Assembly (NCBI GenBank): GCA_003220495.1
Contig: QHSP01000016.1
Location: 87,831-151,830 of the forward strand
Length of the DNA: 64,000 bases
Direction: 5' to 3'
From: Candidatus Rokuibacteriota bacterium
Lineage (GTDB): Bacteria > Methylomirabilota > Methylomirabilia > Rokubacteriales > CSP1-6
The translations under genes and the position numbers were made by a program. A model generated the notes under the pieces. It searched no databases, was not told the DNA's origin, and was given only the letters and a program-made list of their open reading frames with translations. Positions within the stretch are counted from its first letter, which is position 1; the number at the start of each line of letters is the position of its first letter. Of this stretch, positions 23,944-34,825 are shown piece by piece.

Positions 23944-24357
23944 CTAGGACTTCGCGGGGTCGGCCGCCTTCGGCTGCTCTGCGACCTTCGCCGATTCGGG
24001 GGCCCTGGCGTGGTCGGGCGGGCGCGGGGGCTCCCCGGGCCCGGATCGTTCGAAGGGGCTGCGGCGCGGGGTGATACCGAGCTTCGCCGCGATCTGTCCC
24101 ATCGCCTGGGCGATCTCATCCTTCTCGAGCCGGAGCAGGTGATTCTCCCGCTTCAGGTCCTCGATGTCCTTGTGAAGCTTGTCCACTTCCTTCTGCGCTG
24201 CAGCGCCCGCGTGGTGGTCGCCCGCGATGAGCTCGGGCAAGAGACCGAAGATCTGCCGCGTCTCCTCGATCCACTTCGCGATTCGCTCTCGCGCTTCAGC
24301 AGCGGATGTAGGGTCCATGGCCATCCTCGTCTGCTCCGGGGCGCGGTCCGTCGCCAT
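23944..24357 (-). CDS. Hypothetical small coiled-coil protein
   Basis: 137 aa; ...AQKEVDKLHKDIEDLKRENHLLRLEKDEIAQAMGQIAAKL... has heptad-like spacing. It is convergent with the 604-aa gene, only 3 nt tail-to-tail. Coding status is not certain. Confidence 0.45.
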   Translation of the reverse strand: MATDRAPEQTRMAMDPTSAAEARERIAKWIEETRQIFGLLPELIAGDHHAGAAAQKEVDKLHKDIEDLKRENHLLRLEKDEIAQAMGQIAAKLGITPRRSPFERSGPGEPPRPPDHARAPESAKVAEQPKAADPAKS

Positions 24358-24473: not shown

Positions 24474-25046
24474 TCAGGGCGTCGCGGGCGCGGCCAGGAC
24501 GGCCTCGATAAACTGGCGTCCTTTCGGACTATCCCACGGTCTCGGCCCCGCGGCCCGCCCGACCAGCCGACCCTGGCGGTCGACGATGTACACGGTCGGC
24601 GGACCCCAGACGCCGTACACCTTGCCGGTCACATCCCCGCTTTCGTCGAGCAGCACCGGTGCGATGTAGCGGCGCTCCTTGACGGCTTGCCGGACCTTGT
24701 CGGCATCTTCCCTGAAATCGATGAGGAGTACTTCGAGGCCCTTACCGCGAAAGTCCTGGTAGACCTTCTGGACGGGAGGCAACTCCTCCCGGCACGTGCT
24801 TCACCACGTGGCCCAGAAGAAAAGCATCACGACTTTACCGCGTAAGTCGGCGAGGCTGACCGTCTTGCCGCCCAGATCCGGCAGCGAGAAGTCCGGCGCC
24901 GCCTTCGGCGGCGTGTACGGCTGCATCTGCACGCTGGCGAAGTCCGGCGGAGCGACCGCCCCCGGTGTGAGCGTCGCCGAGGCGACCAGCGCCGCGGTCA
25001 GGACTACGACGGGCACGAGTGATCTCATAAGCGCAGGGTATCGCAT
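24474..25046 (-). CDS. Selenocysteine-containing TlpA/ResA-like thiol:disulfide oxidoreductase (thioredoxin fold, signal peptide); in-frame TGA at 24801-24803 (complement)
   Basis: ORFs 24801..25046 and 24474..24782 are in the same frame. Joined, they read ...[30 protein letters not shown]..., which matches the TlpA/ResA active site FWATWCxPC with Sec replacing the first Cys. The second ORF piece begins with TTG, not a real start. Confidence 0.7.
24773..24791 (-). other. SECIS-like hairpin 9 nt downstream of the UGA
   Basis: On the mRNA: UGA agcacgugc CGGGAGG-aguug-CCUCCCG. 7-bp GC stem with a GU-containing apical loop, at the distance expected for a bacterial SECIS. Confidence 0.45.
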
Positions 25047-25061
25047 GACGCCAGCCCGCGG

Positions 25062-27410
25062 CTATCTCTGCCGGAGTGCCCGCACGACGCGCTCCGGGGT
25101 GATCGGCTGGTCGCTGAGCATCACGCCGAGCGGCGCCAACGCGTCGTTGACGGCGTTCAGGATTGCGGCGGGCGCCCCCGTCACCCCCGCTTCGCCGGCG
25201 CCCTTGAAGCCGCCGGCGAGTCCCGGGGCCGGCGACTCGAGGTGATACATCTCGATCGGTGGGAGGTCGGCGCAGGTCGGTACCGCGTAGTCCATCAGAG
25301 TCGTCGAAAGAAGCTGCCCCGTATCGTCGTAGACACAGTGCTCCATCAGCGCGCCGCCGAGCCCCTGGGCGACCCCGCCCGCGATCTGGCCCTCGACGAG
25401 CGCGGGATTGATGATGCGCCCGCAGTCGTCGACGGCGACGTATCTCAGGATACGCACCCGGCCCGTGTCGGTGTCGACCTCGACGACGGCGAGGTGGGCG
25501 CCGTTGGTGAAGGTCCACGCGCCCGGGTTCGTATAGTGCACGGTCGCCTCGAGGCTCGGCTCGACACCCCGGAGCTCGTTCGACCGGAAGTGCGCGGCGC
25601 GCGCGAGCTCGGCGTAGCTCAGGCCCCGCTCTGGGCTCCCGCGGACCGCGGCGCGGCTGCCGCCGAGCTCGATGTCGGCGGCGTGCGCCTCCAGAAGCGC
25701 CGCCGCGACCGTCCGGATGCGCTCTCCGAGCGCCCGTGCGGCGAGCAAGGTCGCGCTTCCGCCGATCGGCATGCCGCGGCTCGCCCAGGTGCCTCCGCCA
25801 TAGGGCACCACGGCGGTGTCGCCGGAGAGCACCGCGACGTCGTCGAGGGGAACGTCGAGCACGTCGGCGATGATCTGCGCGAGCGCCGTGTGAGTCCCCT
25901 GGCCCTGATTGGTGACGCCGACGAGCGCCGTGACCGCGCCGCCGGGCTCGAGGCGTACGGTCGTTCCTTCCTGGCCCGAGATCGGCGCGCCCCCGACGCC
26001 GTAGAACTGCGCGCCCGGGCCGGTGAGCTCGACGAAGCACGCGAGCCCGATTCCCACGTGACGTCCCGCGGCGCGAGCCGCCCCCTGCTCCCTCCGTAGC
26101 CGGTCGTAGTCGGCAGCCTCCAGGAGACGCGCCAGCGCGGCCTGATAGCTGCCGCTGTCGAAGACGTTGCCCGCCGCCGAGGTGTAGGGAAGATCCTCGG
26201 GCCGCACCAGATTGCGCCGCCGCGCCTCCGCGGGGTCGAGTCCGAGGTCGCGCGCGACGAGATCGATCATGCTCTCGGTCACGGCGGTGGCGATCGGATG
26301 TCCGACGGCGCGGTACTGCGAGGTGATCACCTTGTTCTGTGCCACGACGCGCAGGGCCGCGTCGTAGTTCCGCACGCGATAGGGTCCCGGGAGCAAACGA
26401 AGCACCTGGCCACCCTCGACGACGCTCGAACGCGGATATGCGGAGTACGGTCCGACCGCGGCGGTGATGCTCGCCCGCATCGCGGTCAGGATTCCCTCGC
26501 CGTCGGCCGCGACCTCGACGCGGATCGTCTGCTCGCGCGCGTGGATGTCGGACAGAAAGGATTCGCGCCGGCTCGCGACGAACTTGACGGGCCGGCCGAG
26601 CGTCAGCGCGAGCGCGCAGGCCGCCATGTCGTCCTGGTAGACGTGGATCTTGATGCCGAAGCTGCCGCCGACGTCGGGGGCGATGACCCGAACGCGCTGC
26701 TCGCGCAGGCCGAAGAGCTCCGCGAGCACGGCTTGCATCATGTGCGGGACCTGGGTCGAGATCCACACCGTGAGCGCGCGCGTGGCGGGCTCGTAGTCGG
26801 CGATCAGGCTTCGCGGCTCGAGCGGCACGCCCGTGTGACGGCCCGTCGTGAACGTGCGCACCCACACGCGCCCGGCGTCGGCGAAGGCGCGCTCGACGTC
26901 CCCGGCGGTGAGTCGCGTCTCGTAGAGGACGTTGTCGCCGAGCTCGGGATGGATCAGGGGCGCGCCGGCCGCCACCGCGCTCTCCGGCGCGAGCACCGCG
27001 GGCAGCGGCTCGTACTCCACCTCGATCAGCGCCGCCGCGTCGTCGGCCGCCGCCCGGCTCTCGGCGGCGACCGCAACGATCGGCTCGCCGACGTAGCGCA
27101 CGCGATCGACGGCGAGCGGGCGCATGGCGCCCGTCTTCATGCCCTTGTAGTGGAGGAGGACGCCGCGATAGGGCTTGCACAGCGTGGCGACGGCGTCGCC
27201 GGTCAGCACGCCGACGACCCCGGGCGCCCGGCGCGCGCGGTCGAGCTCGACGTGGACGAGCCGCGCGTGGGCGTGGACGCTCCGAACGAAGGCGGCGTGG
27301 ACCATCCGAGGCAACGTCACGTCGTCGACGTAACGGCCGCGGCCGGTCAGCAGGCGGGGGTCGTCGCCGCGTTTGACGCGCGCTCCGATTCGGCCCGCCG
27401 GCGACGACAC
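25062..27410 (-). CDS. Xanthine dehydrogenase family protein, molybdopterin-binding (large) subunit
   Basis: 782 aa; Ald_Xan_dh_C and C2 domain organisation (...GGSFGIK..., ...QGQGTHTALAQI..., ...GEAGVTGAPAAILNAVNDAL...). The form-I CO-dehydrogenase VAYRCSFR loop is absent. No adjacent FeS or FAD subunit genes. Confidence 0.9.
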   Translation of the reverse strand: MSSPAGRIGARVKRGDDPRLLTGRGRYVDDVTLPRMVHAAFVRSVHAHARLVHVELDRARRAPGVVGVLTGDAVATLCKPYRGVLLHYKGMKTGAMRPLAVDRVRYVGEPIVAVAAESRAAADDAAALIEVEYEPLPAVLAPESAVAAGAPLIHPELGDNVLYETRLTAGDVERAFADAGRVWVRTFTTGRHTGVPLEPRSLIADYEPATRALTVWISTQVPHMMQAVLAELFGLREQRVRVIAPDVGGSFGIKIHVYQDDMAACALALTLGRPVKFVASRRESFLSDIHAREQTIRVEVAADGEGILTAMRASITAAVGPYSAYPRSSVVEGGQVLRLLPGPYRVRNYDAALRVVAQNKVITSQYRAVGHPIATAVTESMIDLVARDLGLDPAEARRRNLVRPEDLPYTSAAGNVFDSGSYQAALARLLEAADYDRLRREQGAARAAGRHVGIGLACFVELTGPGAQFYGVGGAPISGQEGTTVRLEPGGAVTALVGVTNQGQGTHTALAQIIADVLDVPLDDVAVLSGDTAVVPYGGGTWASRGMPIGGSATLLAARALGERIRTVAAALLEAHAADIELGGSRAAVRGSPERGLSYAELARAAHFRSNELRGVEPSLEATVHYTNPGAWTFTNGAHLAVVEVDTDTGRVRILRYVAVDDCGRIINPALVEGQIAGGVAQGLGGALMEHCVYDDTGQLLSTTLMDYAVPTCADLPPIEMYHLESPAPGLAGGFKGAGEAGVTGAPAAILNAVNDALAPLGVMLSDQPITPERVVRALRQR

Positions 27411-27428
27411 GGCGGGAATCTATCACGA

Positions 27429-27458
27429 TTGACACTCGCTGACCGGCCCCCCTATCAT
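27429..27458 (+). promoter_or_regulatory. Candidate sigma-70 promoter for the first ABC-transporter operon
   Basis: TTGACA (27429-27434), an 18-nt spacer, then TATCAT (27453-27458). About 47 nt upstream of the substrate-binding-protein ATG, which has a GGAGGG ribosome-binding site. Confidence 0.4.
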
Positions 27459-27505
27459 CGGCGCCACTCGAGCACCTCAGACCTCACGGACCCACGGAGG
27501 GAGCC

Positions 27506-28723
27506 ATGCATCGACGCCAGTTCCTGACGACTGCAACGACCGGGGCGACCATCCTGGCCTTCCCCGCCGTGCTTCGGGCACAGAGCAAAGATCCGATCCG
27601 CATCGGCTTCCCCCTTCCGTTGACCGGCACGTTCGCCGCGATCGCCGCCGACATGCATCGGGGCGCCCAGCTCGCGATGGAGGAGCTGAACGCCAAGGGC
27701 GGCATCATGGGGCGCAAGGTCGACGTGATGTTCCGCGACGACGAGCTGAAGCCGGCCGTCGGAGCCCAGCGGACGAAGGAGCTCATCGAGAACCAGAAGG
27801 TCGACTTCGTCGTCGGCGGTCTCGCCGCGCACGTGCAGATGGCCATCAACGAGCAGACCAAGGCCGCCGGCAAGCTCTACATCTCGGTGAGCCAGTCCGA
27901 CGAGATCAGCGCCAAGCCCGACACGAGCCCGCTGACCTTCCACGAGGCGCTGAACCCGACGATCACCAGCCGGGCCGTCGCCACCTTCGGCGTCAAGGAA
28001 CTCGGCAAGAAGTGGTGGATCGTCTACGCCGACTACGCGTTCGGCAAACAGAACACCGCCGTCTTCACCGCGATCGCGCCCAAGCTCGGTGGCACCCTGC
28101 TCGGCAGCACGCCGTATCCGCTCGGCAAGCCCGAGTTCTCGGCGCACCTGCCGAAGATCCAGGCCGCCAAGCCCGACGTGATCTACGCCGTCACCCCGGG
28201 CGCCGACGCCGTCCCGTTCCTGAAGCAGGCGATCAGCTTCGGCCTGAAGAAGGACGCGAAGATCGTCGTGCCCCTGCACTTCCTCGACTACACCAAGGAG
28301 GGCGGCGCCGAGGTGTGGCAGGACATCTTCGGGGCGACCCACTTCTGCCACGAGCTGGCCGAGACCGTGCCGCAGGCCAAGCGCTACGTCGACGCCTACA
28401 CGAAGAAGTTCAACCGGCCGCCCGACTCGTACTCCGGCTATGGCTACAGCGGCATCATGGAAGTCGCCCGGGGCGTCGAGCTGGCGAAGTCGACCGACTC
28501 CAACGCGGTGGCCAACGCGCTCCGCAAGAACCGTGAGTACGACCACTACAAGGGCAAGCAGTGGTGGCGCGCCTGCGACAACAAGTCCTTCCAGGATCTC
28601 TGGATCCTCAAGGTCCGCTCGCCGCAGCAGGTGAAAGGCGAGTGGGGCTTCTTCGACATCGTCGGCAAAGTCGCGGCGAACGAAGAGCTCGACCGCACCT
28701 GCGCCGAAAAGGGATTCGCCTAG
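27506..28723 (+). CDS. ABC transporter substrate-binding protein (LivJ/branched-chain amino acid type, Tat signal)
   Basis: MHRRQFLTTATTGATILAFPAVLRA has an RRxFL Tat motif, followed by a Peripla_BP_6 fold. Confidence 0.88.
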   Translation: MHRRQFLTTATTGATILAFPAVLRAQSKDPIRIGFPLPLTGTFAAIAADMHRGAQLAMEELNAKGGIMGRKVDVMFRDDELKPAVGAQRTKELIENQKVDFVVGGLAAHVQMAINEQTKAAGKLYISVSQSDEISAKPDTSPLTFHEALNPTITSRAVATFGVKELGKKWWIVYADYAFGKQNTAVFTAIAPKLGGTLLGSTPYPLGKPEFSAHLPKIQAAKPDVIYAVTPGADAVPFLKQAISFGLKKDAKIVVPLHFLDYTKEGGAEVWQDIFGATHFCHELAETVPQAKRYVDAYTKKFNRPPDSYSGYGYSGIMEVARGVELAKSTDSNAVANALRKNREYDHYKGKQWWRACDNKSFQDLWILKVRSPQQVKGEWGFFDIVGKVAANEELDRTCAEKGFA

Positions 28724-28727
28724 CCGC

Positions 28728-29612
28728 GTGTTCGACATCCCGTTGTCCGCGCTCGCCGCCCAGGCCTTCACCGGCCTCGTGCTGGGCGGGATCTTCGTCC
28801 TGATGGCCATCGGGCTCAGCCTGATCTTCGGGCTGATGACGGTGGTCAACTTCGCCCACGGATCGTTCTACATGCTGGGCGCGTACGTTGCCTTCTCGCT
28901 GATGGGGCTGACGAAGAGCTTCTGGGCGGCCCTGGTGCTGGCGCCGCTAGTCGTCGGAGCTCTCGGCTTCCTCGTCGAGCGCTTCCTCATCCGGCGGCTC
29001 TACGGGCGCAGCCCGGACGATCCGCTGTTGCTGACGTTCGGTCTGTCGCTGGCGATGGTCGAAGGCGCCAAGCTGATATGGGGAAAGATCGGTCTCCAGG
29101 TCGACCCACCCAAGCAGCTGGCGGCCGCCGTCAACCTGGGCTTCATGAATTTCCCGGTCTACCGGCTGTTCGTCATCGCCGTGACGGCCGCCGTGCTCGT
29201 GTCGCTCTGGCTCTTCCTCGAGAAGACCAGCATCGGGCTCATCATCCGTGCGGGCTCCCGGGACGCGCTGATGGTGCGGGCGCTGGGCGTGGATCTCAAT
29301 CGGGTCTGGCTGCTCGTCTTCGGGCTCGGCATCGCCATGGCCGGCCTGGCGGGAGTCCTCGCCGGCCCGATGCGCGGTGTCTACGCCGAGATGGGCGTCG
29401 AGATCATCATCGATTCCTTCGTGATCGTGGTCGTCGGTGGCATGGGAAGCCTGGCCGGGGCGATCATCGCCGGTCTGCTCATGGGGGAGATCGTCAGCCT
29501 CACGACGTTCTTCGCGCCCAAGCTCGCCGAGCTGATCATCTTCATCGTGATGGCGATCGTGCTGCTCGTCCGGCCGAGCGGACTCTTCGGCGAGGCGGGG
29601 TTGGCCGAGTGA
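28728..29612 (+). CDS. Branched-chain amino acid ABC transporter permease (LivH type)
   Basis: VFDIPLSALAAQAFTGLVLGGIFVLMAIGLSLIFGLMTVVNFAHGSFYMLGAY... GTG start. Confidence 0.85.
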   Translation: MFDIPLSALAAQAFTGLVLGGIFVLMAIGLSLIFGLMTVVNFAHGSFYMLGAYVAFSLMGLTKSFWAALVLAPLVVGALGFLVERFLIRRLYGRSPDDPLLLTFGLSLAMVEGAKLIWGKIGLQVDPPKQLAAAVNLGFMNFPVYRLFVIAVTAAVLVSLWLFLEKTSIGLIIRAGSRDALMVRALGVDLNRVWLLVFGLGIAMAGLAGVLAGPMRGVYAEMGVEIIIDSFVIVVVGGMGSLAGAIIAGLLMGEIVSLTTFFAPKLAELIIFIVMAIVLLVRPSGLFGEAGLAE

Positions 29613-30577
29613 TCCGGGCGGCCGCGTTCCGTCCGATCACGGCATGGGTGTCGGCCCATCCCGTGGCGTCCTTCGTCGTCTTCTTCGCCGCGTTCCCGTT
29701 TCTCGTGCCGTACCAGTCGCTCGCCACGCAGGTGTTGATCTTCGGCCTGTTCGCGCTGGGGTTCAATCTCCTCTACGGCTACACCGGGCTCCTCTCGTTC
29801 GGCCACGCCGCCTACTACGGGCTCGGCGCATACGGCGCGGGTATCGCGCTGGCCAAGGTCAAGGTGACCTCGCTGTGGCTCGCGCTCGGCATGGGCCTCA
29901 CGGCGGCGGTCATCGGCGGCGCGCTGGTCGGGTTCTTCTGCCTGCGGCGGCGCGGCATCTACTTCGCCATGCTGACCTTGGCCTTTGCGCAGATGCTCTA
30001 CTTCATCGCCTTCCACGCCGCGGACCTGACCGGCGGCGACGACGGGCTGCGGGGCATCCCGCTGCACCCCCTCGGACTGGCCGGCTGGTCCGTGTCGCTC
30101 CGCACCCCGCTGGCCTTCTACTTCTTCGCCTACGCGCTCGTCGTGCTCGCGGTCGCCGCGCTCAAGCGGATCCTGGATTCGCCGTTCGGCGCGGTGCTGC
30201 AGGCGATCCGCGAGAACAGCGATCGAGCCGTGGCGTGCGGCTACGACATCAACCGGATCAAGCTCCTCTCGTTCGTCTTCTCGGCGCTCTTCACCGGGCT
30301 CGCTGGGGCGCTCGACGCGCTTCGGCTCACGGTCGTGCCCGTCGACTCGCTGTACTGGACGACCTCGGGCCAGGTGGTGATCATGACCTTGCTCGGCGGC
30401 GCGGGGACGTTCTTCGGACCGTTCGTGGGTGCGGCCACCTTCCTGATCCTCGCCGACCGTCTGAGCCTCGTCATCGAGGCCTGGCCGCTCGTGATCGGCG
30501 TCATTTTCATGGCGTTCGTCCTGTTCCTCCCGCGCGGGATATGGGGCACGCTGGTGGCTCGCGGGGTCGAGCGATGA
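29609..30577 (+). CDS. Branched-chain amino acid ABC transporter permease (LivM type)
   Basis: ...LIFGLFALGFNLLYGYTGLLSFGHAAYYGLGAY... GTG at 29609 overlaps the livH-type stop (GTGA). The 499-aa ORF in the track is an extension. Confidence 0.85.
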   Translation: MIRAAAFRPITAWVSAHPVASFVVFFAAFPFLVPYQSLATQVLIFGLFALGFNLLYGYTGLLSFGHAAYYGLGAYGAGIALAKVKVTSLWLALGMGLTAAVIGGALVGFFCLRRRGIYFAMLTLAFAQMLYFIAFHAADLTGGDDGLRGIPLHPLGLAGWSVSLRTPLAFYFFAYALVVLAVAALKRILDSPFGAVLQAIRENSDRAVACGYDINRIKLLSFVFSALFTGLAGALDALRLTVVPVDSLYWTTSGQVVIMTLLGGAGTFFGPFVGAATFLILADRLSLVIEAWPLVIGVIFMAFVLFLPRGIWGTLVARGVER

Positions 30578-32344: not shown

Positions 32345-33055
32345 TCAGATTTCGAGGAAGCGCTGCTGAATGGTCGGGTCCCGGCGGAGCTGTTCGGGAG
32401 TGCCCTCGAACTGGATCTGCCCCTGATCCATCACGTACACGCGGTGCGACAGAGCGAGCGCGACTTCGAGGGTCTGCTCGACCAGCAGGATCGTCGTGCC
32501 CCGCTTGTTGATCGCGGACAGGATTTCCGTGAGGTTCTGCACGAGGAGCGGCGCGAGCCCTTCGGTCGGCTCGTCCACGAGCATGACGGCCGGGTGGCTC
32601 ACGAGCCCCCGCGCGATCGCGAGCATCTGCTGCTCGCCGCCCGAGAGGAACCGGCCGCGGTGCGCGATGCGCTCGCGGAGCCGCGGAAAGTAGCCGAAGA
32701 CTTCCTCCAGCGCGTCGGTGCCGTCACGGTGCGTCGGGCCGCCGAGCATGCCGAGCCGGAGATTCTCCAGCACGGTGAGGTTCGGCAGCACGCGACGCTC
32801 CTCGGGAATCCACGCGATGCCCCGACGCGCGATCTCGTGGGTGCCGAGCCCCGTGATGTCTTCGCCGCGCAGCCGGACGTGGCCGCGCCGGGCCCGCACG
32901 ATGCCCATGATCGACCGCAAGGTCGTCGTCTTGCCGGCGCCGTTGCGTCCGATGAGCGTGACGACCTCGCGCTCGCCGACCGTCAGCGACACGCCTTGCA
33001 AGATGTGGGCTTCGCCGTAGTAGGTGTGGACGTCGTCGAGGGTGAGCAGGCTCAC
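32345..33055 (-). CDS. ABC transporter ATP-binding protein (LivF type)
   Basis: 236 aa; Walker A GRNGAGKTT, signature LSGGEQQ, Walker B LVDEP. GTG overlaps the upstream stop (GTGA). Confidence 0.88.
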   Translation of the reverse strand: MSLLTLDDVHTYYGEAHILQGVSLTVGEREVVTLIGRNGAGKTTTLRSIMGIVRARRGHVRLRGEDITGLGTHEIARRGIAWIPEERRVLPNLTVLENLRLGMLGGPTHRDGTDALEEVFGYFPRLRERIAHRGRFLSGGEQQMLAIARGLVSHPAVMLVDEPTEGLAPLLVQNLTEILSAINKRGTTILLVEQTLEVALALSHRVYVMDQGQIQFEGTPEQLRRDPTIQQRFLEI

Positions 33056-33801
33056 CGGGTGGCTCCCAGATAGGTCTGCTGCACCCGGGTATTGGTGCGA
33101 ATCTCCTCCGGCGTTCCATCCGCGAGCACCTGGCCCTGGTGGAGCACGGTGATCCGGTCGGAGATCCCCATCACCACCTTCATCTTGTGCTCGACCAGCA
33201 CCACCGTGCGCCCGGTCGCGAGCTCGCGAATGAGCCGCATCGTGGCGTCGGTCTCCTCCGGGCTCATGCCCGCGGTCGGCTCGTCGAGCAATAACAAGAT
33301 CGGATCGGACGCGAGCGCGATGCCGAGCTCGAGATGTCGCTTCTCGCCGTGCGAGAGGTGCGCGGCGAGCAAGTTGGTCTTGGTCCCGAGCCCGACGGAC
33401 GTCAGGATGGCGACCGCACGGTCCCTCACCTCCGTGAGGTGATCGGCGCGCGACCAGAAGTTGAAGGACCGCGCGTAGCCCTGCACCGCGACGCGCACGT
33501 TCTCGAGCACGCTCAGATGCGGGAAGACGTTCGTGATCTGATACGACTTGGCGATGCCGAGCCGCGCAGTCGCGTGCTGCGGCACCCCCGTGATGTCGGC
33601 GCCGTTGAACCAGATGCGGCCCGAGGTCGGCATCGTCTCGCCGGAGATCAGGCGAAAGAAGGTGGTCTTGCCGGCGCCGTTGGGCCCGATGATCGAGCGC
33701 AGCTCGCCGCGCTGGACGCTCACGTCCACGTCCGACACCGCCAGCAAGCTGCCGTACGCGCGCGTGAGGCGCTCGGTGCGCAGCAGGACGGCGTCGGGCA
33801 T
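33052..33801 (-). CDS. ABC transporter ATP-binding protein (LivG type)
   Basis: [47 protein letters not shown]... The start was chosen at the internal ATG (33799-33801 complement); the ORF in the track extends 23 codons further upstream. Confidence 0.82.
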
Positions 33802-33868
33802 AGCGCGAGATAGCACGCGGGCTTTTGCCGTGTCAAGGCGCCGAGCTGTGCTATCGTGCCGCGCGGAC

Positions 33869-34825
33869 ATGACCCCTCACGTGGTGCCGCAGCGCTGGAA
33901 GAGCGGGATGATCGAAATCGGAGCCAAGATCTTTGCCTACGTGCAGGCCTCGGGGATCGATCCGACCGGGGACACCGGCGTCGCCAACTCCGGGTTGATC
34001 ATCGGGCCTTCGGCGGCGGTCGCGGTGGACGCGTTGATGGTTCCGTCGATGACGAAACGGCTCGTGACGGCCATCAAGAAGACGACGCGCAAGCCGGTCG
34101 CCCAGCTCATCAACACGCACCATCACCTCGACCACACCGGCGGCAACCGGTTCTTCCGCGGCGCGACGATCGTCGCGACCGAGAAGTGCCGCGCGGCGCT
34201 CGCTCCGGGGTTTCCGCCGGTGGATCTGCTGCAGCGGTTCATGCCCAAGTTCGCCGCGGAGTTCCCGAAGCTCCGGGTGGCCCTGCCGACGGTGACCTTC
34301 GAGGACCGGATGGTCCTGTACGACGGCGAGCGAGAGATCCAGCTCTGGCACCCGGGCTTCGCCGCGCACACCGTCGGAGACGCCACCGCCTACCTGCCGA
34401 AAGAACGGATCCTGTTCGCGGGTGACATCGCGTTCCTCTACGTCACGCCCCTGGCCTTTCAGGGCCACGTCGGCAACTGGATCAAGGCCGCCGACCGTCT
34501 GCTGCGCTTCGACGCCGACGTGATCGTGCCGGGCCACGGACCCATCGGCACCAAGAAAGACTTGAAGCACATGCGCGACTACCTCGCGCTGGTGCGCCGC
34601 GAGGCAAAGCAGCGGTTCGACGCCGGCATGCCGGCGGAGGCGGCGGCCGCCGACATCAAGCTCGGCGTGTACGCGTCGTGGAGCGACCCCGAGCGGATCT
34701 TGCCGAACGTGATGCGCTGCTACCAGGAATTCCGCGACGAGCTGGATCGGCCGATGGATCTGCCGCGGATGCTCGCGGGGATGGAACGGCTGCGCGGGGC
34801 GGCGTCGCCCCACGCGTGCGTCTAG
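33869..34825 (+). CDS. MBL fold metallo-hydrolase
   Basis: ...AQLINTHHHLDHTGGN... is the HxHxDH motif; GDIAFLY and VPGHGP lie downstream. Confidence 0.85.
   Translation: MTPHVVPQRWKSGMIEIGAKIFAYVQASGIDPTGDTGVANSGLIIGPSAAVAVDALMVPSMTKRLVTAIKKTTRKPVAQLINTHHHLDHTGGNRFFRGATIVATEKCRAALAPGFPPVDLLQRFMPKFAAEFPKLRVALPTVTFEDRMVLYDGEREIQLWHPGFAAHTVGDATAYLPKERILFAGDIAFLYVTPLAFQGHVGNWIKAADRLLRFDADVIVPGHGPIGTKKDLKHMRDYLALVRREAKQRFDAGMPAEAAAADIKLGVYASWSDPERILPNVMRCYQEFRDELDRPMDLPRMLAGMERLRGAASPHACV

Follow-up and report, generated by a model that had tools for sequence, protein, structure and literature searches.

An orphan molybdenum hydroxylase subunit beside a secreted selenoprotein gene in soil Rokubacteria: probably a gene-order accident, with no support for a molybdenum-selenium module

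To our knowledge, all characterised enzymes of the xanthine-oxidase family pass electrons from molybdenum (Mo) to [2Fe-2S] clusters, and they need iron-sulfur (FeS) and flavin (FAD) subunits in addition to the large subunit (L) that binds Mo. In what follows the FeS subunit is the small one (S, or CoxS) and the FAD subunit the medium one (M, or CoxM). The large subunits themselves form a vast family: soil genomes were found to hold 1,889 coxL homologues in 466 genomes, mostly not of type I, the active-site loop of form I CoxL being marked by the motif AYRCSFR (PMC6784897). On the side of selenium, a 'UGC-containing TlpA family' and 'Prx TxxU' are among the described selenoprotein classes, and 63 selenoprotein genes have been predicted in a Methylomirabilota metagenome-assembled genome, or MAG (PMC13188914). 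The locus considered here brings both worlds side by side. It lies in a stretch of 64,000 nucleotides from a Candidatus Rokuibacteriota bacterium (contig QHSP01000016.1), called the window hereafter and numbered from its first letter, where the gene of a Mo-binding large subunit is directly followed, on the same strand, by the gene of a secreted, selenocysteine (Sec)-containing protein of the TlpA family. A first-pass annotation had noticed the pair, remarked that FeS and FAD partner genes were missing next to it, and deemed a functional link with selenium metabolism conceivable, if speculative. We find that the Mo subunit is indeed an orphan and that its neighbour is a genuine selenoprotein gene; their adjacency, restricted to one shallow branch of soil Rokubacteria, is probably a gene-order accident, and a Mo-Se module finds no support.

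The Mo gene (25062..27410, minus strand), which is the first gene in its own transcription unit, starts with GTG and codes for the 782-aa large subunit of a xanthine-oxidase-family hydroxylase of the Qor/CoxL-like type. Its open reading frame (ORF) is intact and encodes the domains Ald_Xan_dh_C, MoCoBD_1 and MoCoBD_2 (97, 240 and 300 bits in Pfam, all above cut-offs). The top PDB match is QorL (1t3q_B, 3e-172), other close solved relatives being mycobacterial CoxL (8uem) and 6-hydroxypseudooxynicotine dehydrogenase (7dqx). Residues 7-782 align with QorL residues 13-785 and, since the alignment already begins at residue 7, the GTG start at 27410 is right. At the level of residues, the catalytic Glu740 (Glu743 in Qor) and the active-site Gln220 (Gln224 in Qor) are retained, and GGSFGIK pairs with the GGGFGQK of QorL. 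The active-site loop, the classification of which had been proposed as a check, reads SQYRAVGH; it is like AYRGVGF of Qor and unlike AYRCSFR of form I. Identity as form I CO dehydrogenase CoxL was rejected, as the loop has no Cu-binding Cys of the AYRCSFR type and the scores fall below the cut-offs of the CO dehydrogenase (CODH) models (TIGR02416, 542 vs 991 bits; NF040766, 584 vs 950 bits). In fact the protein stays under all NCBIfam equivalog cut-offs, that of glyceraldehyde dehydrogenase alpha included (644 vs 790 bits). Its NCBI record, PYN38075.1 (747 aa), is 100% identical but begins later. It drops the first 35 codons (window 27306-27410), a region that matches the conserved N-terminus of QorL. 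As deposited, the gene is thus too short, and nothing supports the name given to its product, 'carbon monoxide dehydrogenase'. No signal peptide or twin-arginine translocation (Tat) peptide was found on the Mo subunit, whose N-terminus is of the usual CoxL/Qor type; the protein is predicted to be cytoplasmic, as had been assumed. It is probably a functional Qor-like hydroxylase subunit, the substrate class of which we can only infer.

This subunit is an orphan across the whole 64-kb window (about 70% G+C), where its gene is flanked by 25 kb and 37 kb of sequence. None of the six frames of the window contains a CoxS-type Cys motif, and a tblastn of the relatives' CoxS and CoxM proteins against it gave nothing better than E = 0.008. 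Among 50 ORF-derived proteins, which represent nearly all the likely genes of the window, a Pfam scan detected no Fer2_2, FAD_binding_5, XdhC or CoxD-G, and no SelD, SelA, SelB or YqeB/C either; a tRNA scan and an Rfam scan of the window were both empty. As a positive control, the identical motif and tblastn tests detect CoxS beside all 23 of the outgroup homologues described below. Directly upstream of the Mo gene stands the divergent gene of a LivK-type binding protein, with no FeS or FAD gene there. Two products were considered as candidate partners and rejected: p137, a cytoplasmic coiled-coil protein, and p604, which has no Pfam match, both being devoid of FeS-type Cys motifs. Literature searches on orphan or standalone coxL genes returned nothing pertinent, the 'standalone' matches concerning Ni-CODH.

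Scanning a single genome for each GTDB species, we obtained 80 homologous loci (numbered with the prefix L), which fall into 23 outgroup loci and 57 loci of what we call the orphan clade. All 23 outgroup homologues (46-74% identity) have a CoxS gene directly upstream, within about 400 nt, and at least 17 of them also have an adjacent CoxM gene, in the order M-S-L or S-L-M. They come from sources as diverse as Comamonadaceae, Acetobacteraceae, an actinomycete and Acidobacteriota-like bins, together with L040, L050, L051 and L032. The remaining 57 loci, 73-93% identical, are nearly all labelled Rokubacteria or Methylomirabilota; not one of them carries CoxS or CoxM within the flanks examined (up to 10 kb per side, with at least 1 kb upstream in 50 of the 57 and at least 5 kb on both sides in 22). 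The earlier remark about missing small and medium subunits can in this way be extended from the immediate surroundings of the gene to the whole window and to its relatives. In a neighbour-joining (NJ) tree the S-linked homologues are all outgroups, and the 48 orphan loci that were long enough make up, with the window, one clade with L032 (S-L) as sister; S/M linkage was therefore lost once. After this loss the gene was kept in good order. Its ratio of nonsynonymous to synonymous substitution (dN/dS) is 0.13-0.24, i.e. purifying selection, more than 50 species have an unbroken ORF, and more than 100 near-identical metagenome variants of the protein are full-length. Out of 149 columns invariant in the S-linked homologues, 131 (88%) are unchanged in at least 95% of the orphan clade, at the base of which the NJ tree has no long branch. 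As an aside, L014 (7771-12331) has a second Mo-subunit paralogue, 37% identical, immediately before the orphan gene, and the 22 kb examined there yielded neither S nor M.

The gene that follows (24474..25046, minus strand) codes for a secreted TlpA/ResA-like thiol:disulfide oxidoreductase, with a hydrophobic signal or anchor at its N-terminus and the motif FWATW-U-STC. The in-frame TGA read as the Sec codon (24801..24803, minus strand) is retained in 14 of 14 Mo-adjacent copies, namely those of the window, of 12 loci of its subclade and of L016, the next two residues being variable. Twelve nucleotides after this UGA begins a hairpin (24773..24791, minus strand) resembling a selenocysteine insertion sequence (SECIS), with a 7-bp stem and an AGUUG loop. 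It is conserved in 10 aligned orthologues, at -12.8 kcal/mol and with one A-U to G-C compensatory pair; none of the Rfam models matches it. Cys-type orthologues (P0127-P0137; 51-69% identity) read WATWCPDC. With a TGA that is kept, a conserved hairpin and orthologues of the Cys type, the TlpA gene is therefore a genuine selenoprotein gene. A curious case is the homologue P0129, which reads WATW-W-PDC, with Trp (TGG) in the place of the Sec (TGA) or Cys of its relatives, whether through a true TGA-to-TGG change or through a sequencing or calling artefact.

The first-pass annotation placed the selenoprotein 15 nt downstream of the Mo gene. This is the correct distance from the Mo stop codon to the first TlpA ATG (spacer 25047..25061, minus strand; ATG at 25046), which is missing in 7 of the 12 relatives; the ATG equivalent to 25028 is conserved in all of them. 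The sequence comparison makes the latter probably the true TlpA start, hence a spacer of 33 nt that reaches 25029. In most relatives a Shine-Dalgarno-like GRGGTA is seen about 12 nt upstream of the 25028-equivalent ATG. The spacer contains no terminator-like or promoter-like site. Co-transcription of the Mo gene and the Sec-TlpA gene, already supposed earlier, is likely, because the two genes are on the same strand, 15-33 nt apart, with no terminator between them and with the same tight spacing in 12 relatives.

How far does this pairing extend? A Sec-TlpA gene lies beside the Mo gene in 13 of the 57 orphan loci, 12 of which belong to one subclade (at least 84% identity), that of the window; the thirteenth, L016, is 79% identical and sits on a different branch. 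Within the subclade itself, L052 has kept the Mo gene together with a 137-aa coiled-coil gene, and its TlpA is a 37-residue remnant. At L016 the next gene after the Mo gene codes for a peroxiredoxin (Prx) that has a signal peptide and, at its peroxidatic position, a TGA (FTPT-U-TKEL); Sec-TlpA comes after it. Such a Sec-peroxiredoxin is found directly upstream of TlpA homologues in five contexts, L016 (7124-8202), L088 (3868-5063), L089 (5235-6327), L090 (2238-3331) and L091 (3509-4599), the two genes overlapping by 4 nt where frames are intact and TlpA being of the Sec type or of the Cys type. The Mo gene is present only at L016 among the five, and absent from the sequence examined at L088, L089, L090 and L091. 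At L086 and L087 a Cys-type TlpA is located amid genes of coenzyme A (CoA) metabolism, without peroxiredoxin or Mo gene, and the window contains no Sec-peroxiredoxin of the cassette type. As the Prx-TlpA pair recurs in five contexts, it is this pair that constitutes the recurrent unit. The cassette looks like a periplasmic Sec-peroxiredoxin provided with a dedicated reductant, a role that TlpA would plausibly fill.

Taken together, we consider it fairly probable that the window contains two unrelated genes which share a short operon in one shallow lineage, with a Mo subunit that assembles in trans. The ancestor of the Rokubacteria-specific clade would have had the usual FeS-Mo (or FAD-FeS-Mo) operon, before the single loss of S/M linkage. 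The Mo subunit would still be needed and would most likely assemble with FeS and FAD subunits whose genes lie at other places in the genome, because all characterised members of the family require such subunits. Sec-TlpA, for its part, would be a periplasmic thiol-disulfide reductase with a secreted Sec-peroxiredoxin as its own partner. The Prx-TlpA cassette, or its TlpA half, would have been inserted behind the Mo gene, at a junction that varies greatly between loci; in the subclade of the window TlpA alone would be left, hence probably read-through transcription from the promoter of the Mo gene.

Several observations weigh against this picture. No FeS or FAD subunit that could serve as partner came out of the window or of the metagenome scan: queried with the CoxS of L032, the nearest linked one, the metagenomes returned nothing above 71% identity and no trans partner, and all 11 S loci with enough flank recovered by that scan carry their own L gene. 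Five positions (L233F, D280T/G, L599, R677A and L709A) are altered in most of the orphan clade, which could reflect a changed quaternary structure. Finally, in a tree of TlpA proteins, those of the window subclade are nearer to Cys-type Prx-linked TlpAs than to the TlpA of L016, of which they are not the sister; the two Mo-TlpA juxtapositions may be independent, slightly favouring a non-random association, in so far as a 150-aa NJ tree, which is weak, can be relied upon. We note in passing that the five altered positions are invariant in all 23 S-linked homologues, the changed residues of R677A and D280T/G belonging to the motifs GQI(R)GG and EDR, respectively.

An orphan clade independent of the classical S and M subunits would account for part of these facts. 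The L subunit would then act alone or pass electrons to an unrecognised partner, which we regard as unlikely. Such independence would fit the lack of S/M genes in the 57 loci, over flanks of up to 10 kb per side, and along 25-37 kb in the window, the failure to find a close relative of the nearest linked S subunit in metagenomes, and the alteration of five otherwise invariant residues. However, it is established knowledge that every characterised enzyme of the family sends electrons from Mo to [2Fe-2S] clusters. Besides, 88% of the family-invariant columns are retained without rate acceleration at the base of the clade, and no conserved neighbour has FeS or flavin motifs, LivKHM being the only widely shared genes. 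In a related proposal, to which we grant a similarly low likelihood, the orphan clade would have no dedicated FeS and FAD subunits and would either borrow the S/M module of a paralogue or use a new electron exit, the five changed residues marking the interface. A weaker variant of this proposal would have the repeated placement of secreted Sec-redoxins behind the Mo gene (window subclade, L016) selected and not accidental.

It is rather improbable that the Mo gene only seems to be an orphan because S and M genes begin right beyond the sequence examined. To be fair, the window makes up 64 kb of a 226-kb contig, yet S is found within about 400 nt of L in 23 of 23 linked homologues, whereas the window offers flanks of 25 kb and 37 kb without an S or M gene, and the 22 relatives with at least 5 kb on both flanks have none; genes located further away would not share the operon of the Mo gene.

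Very improbable in our view is a Mo-Se module, in which the hydroxylase and Sec-TlpA would work together, for instance by handling selenium on behalf of a Se-dependent Mo centre or by coupling their redox reactions. The tight spacing maintained in 12 relatives might be taken as a sign of it, as might the presence of Sec-redoxins behind the same Mo gene in a second lineage, L016, the more so if, as the TlpA tree suggests, that event was independent. Yet conservation of the neighbourhood, the very check that the first-pass annotation had recommended, with a lack of the pair in relatives named as refuting, turns the other way and largely refutes the module: the pairing is missing in 44 of the 57 orphan loci and in 23 of 23 outgroups, L052 keeps its Mo gene with a TlpA remnant only, and L086-L091 have TlpA relatives without the Mo gene. 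The compartments differ too, with a signal peptide on TlpA and none on the Mo subunit. The latter scores far below the models of Se-dependent hydroxylases (TIGR03311, 275 vs 830 bits; TIGR03313, 276 vs 1102 bits), and the genes selD, yqeB and yqeC, also named for a search, have no counterpart among the 50 proteins scanned from the 64 kb. Moreover, as Methylomirabilota MAGs can contain about 60 selenoprotein genes, chance adjacency to one of them is unremarkable: a rough inference that sets this number beside 4-15 coxL-like genes in a genome of about 6,000 genes leads to some 0.1-0.3 chance pairs of neighbours per genome. The Mo-Se link is not supported. As for the idea that the Mo gene is a decaying relic after break-up of its operon, which the loss of partner genes might evoke, it is next to untenable in the face of intact ORFs in more than 50 species, the dN/dS values given above, retained catalytic residues and more than 100 full-length metagenome variants.

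The neighbourhood of the Mo gene is more conserved on the upstream side. Across a divergent intergenic region (27411..27505), with a sigma-70-like site for the plus strand at 27429..27458, lies the gene of a LivK-type periplasmic binding protein (27506..28723, plus strand; Pfam Peripla_BP_6), followed by the LivH and LivM permeases (28728..29612 and about 29612..30577, plus strand; Pfam BPD_transp_2 and synteny in relatives). Convergent with this Liv operon are two ATP-binding cassette (ABC) ATPases, LivF-like (32345..33055) and LivG-like (33052..33876), both on the minus strand (Pfam ABC_tran, BCA_ABC_TP_C), and an acyl-CoA dehydrogenase gene is also near the Liv genes. Divergent LivK-LivH-LivM genes are directly upstream of the Mo gene in 33 of the 46 orphan loci with enough flank, which makes LivKHM its commonest neighbour and the only widely shared one. 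The association extends to 11 proteobacterial M-S-L operons, followed by LivK (39-40% identical) and LivH (58-61%).

On its downstream side the Mo gene adjoins a hot spot of rearrangement. In 51 sequences (50 loci and the window), the neighbour is extradiol-dioxygenase-like in 15 cases and Sec-TlpA in 14, the others having an HpcH aldolase, a hydrolase set, an AMP ligase and more; neighbours were grouped by blastp at the level of ORFs, single-linkage grouping by tblastx having merged all of them, an artefact of high G+C. Beyond TlpA, the window has the 137-aa coiled-coil gene p137 (23944..24357, minus strand), without signal peptide or Pfam match, which accompanies the TlpA gene within the subclade. 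The dioxygenase-like proteins have weak HpaD and catechol 2,3-dioxygenase matches, a hint that the product of the hydroxylase may enter aromatic ring cleavage. Its substrate would probably be a small aromatic or N-heterocyclic acid, imported by the divergent LivKHM(GF) ABC importer and then hydroxylated, with an extradiol ring-cleavage dioxygenase that would come after the Mo gene in many relatives. In detail, the dioxygenase-like gene has two domains of the vicinal oxygen chelate (VOC)/extradiol type and is at most 1.5 kb downstream of the Mo gene, mostly directly after it, in 15 orphan loci (L012, L013, L021, L026, L029, L036, L038, L039, L042, L043, L046, L047, L054, L057 and L058). The window at large is rich in paralogues of CoA metabolism, with four family-III CoA-transferases, five acyl-CoA dehydrogenases, two enoyl-CoA hydratases and a gene like that of 3-hydroxy-3-methylglutaryl-CoA (HMG-CoA) lyase; it also has two citrate-synthase-family genes, an aconitase and PrpF (methylcitrate-type), as well as a second Liv-type ABC set at about 35.8-40.4 kb.

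What matters here is first that a tempting, unsupported link between Mo and Se is removed, and that the public label 'carbon monoxide dehydrogenase' of a Rokubacteria protein family is corrected, the CO-oxidising loop being absent. The locus also provides a clean case of a multi-subunit Mo hydroxylase that lost its operon linkage once and, in more than 50 species, has not regained it. Should subunit sharing be demonstrated, this would bear on the way in which soil bacteria rich in coxL paralogues save on electron-transfer subunits. As to the selenoproteins, the secreted Sec-peroxiredoxin and its dedicated TlpA suggest a periplasmic pair for peroxide defence, in a phylum whose selenoproteomes are reported to be very large.

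Set against known systems, the Mo subunit is nearest to QorL of Pseudomonas putida 86 (1t3q_B), with which it shares the three-domain layout, aligned catalytic Gln and Glu, and a loop, QYRAVGH, that resembles AYRGVGF. Qor, however, was solved as a complex with its small and medium subunits, whereas the gene of the window has no nearby partners and stands beside a Liv-type ABC importer. Form I CoxL (1n5w, 8uem) belongs to the same family and has the same fold (1e-129 to 1e-152), but its AYRCSFR loop with Cys is lacking in the Mo subunit, and coxMS and coxDEFG genes are lacking in the window. The Se-dependent Mo hydroxylases (Se_dep_XDH, TIGR03311; Se_sel_red_Mo, TIGR03313; nicotinate dehydrogenase, 3hrd) are of the same superfamily, yet the match to 3hrd reaches only 3e-39, and selD, yqeB and yqeC do not accompany the gene in the window. 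TlpA, finally, is comparable with Sec-containing TlpA/ResA-like redoxins (NF041054, WAxxUGC_long), as it shares their thioredoxin fold, their signal peptide and a U as first residue of the CxxC motif. It differs from them by its motif, WATW-U-xTC and not UGC, by a score of 68 bits against the NF041054 cut-off of 300 and by having relatives that are paired with a secreted Sec-peroxiredoxin.

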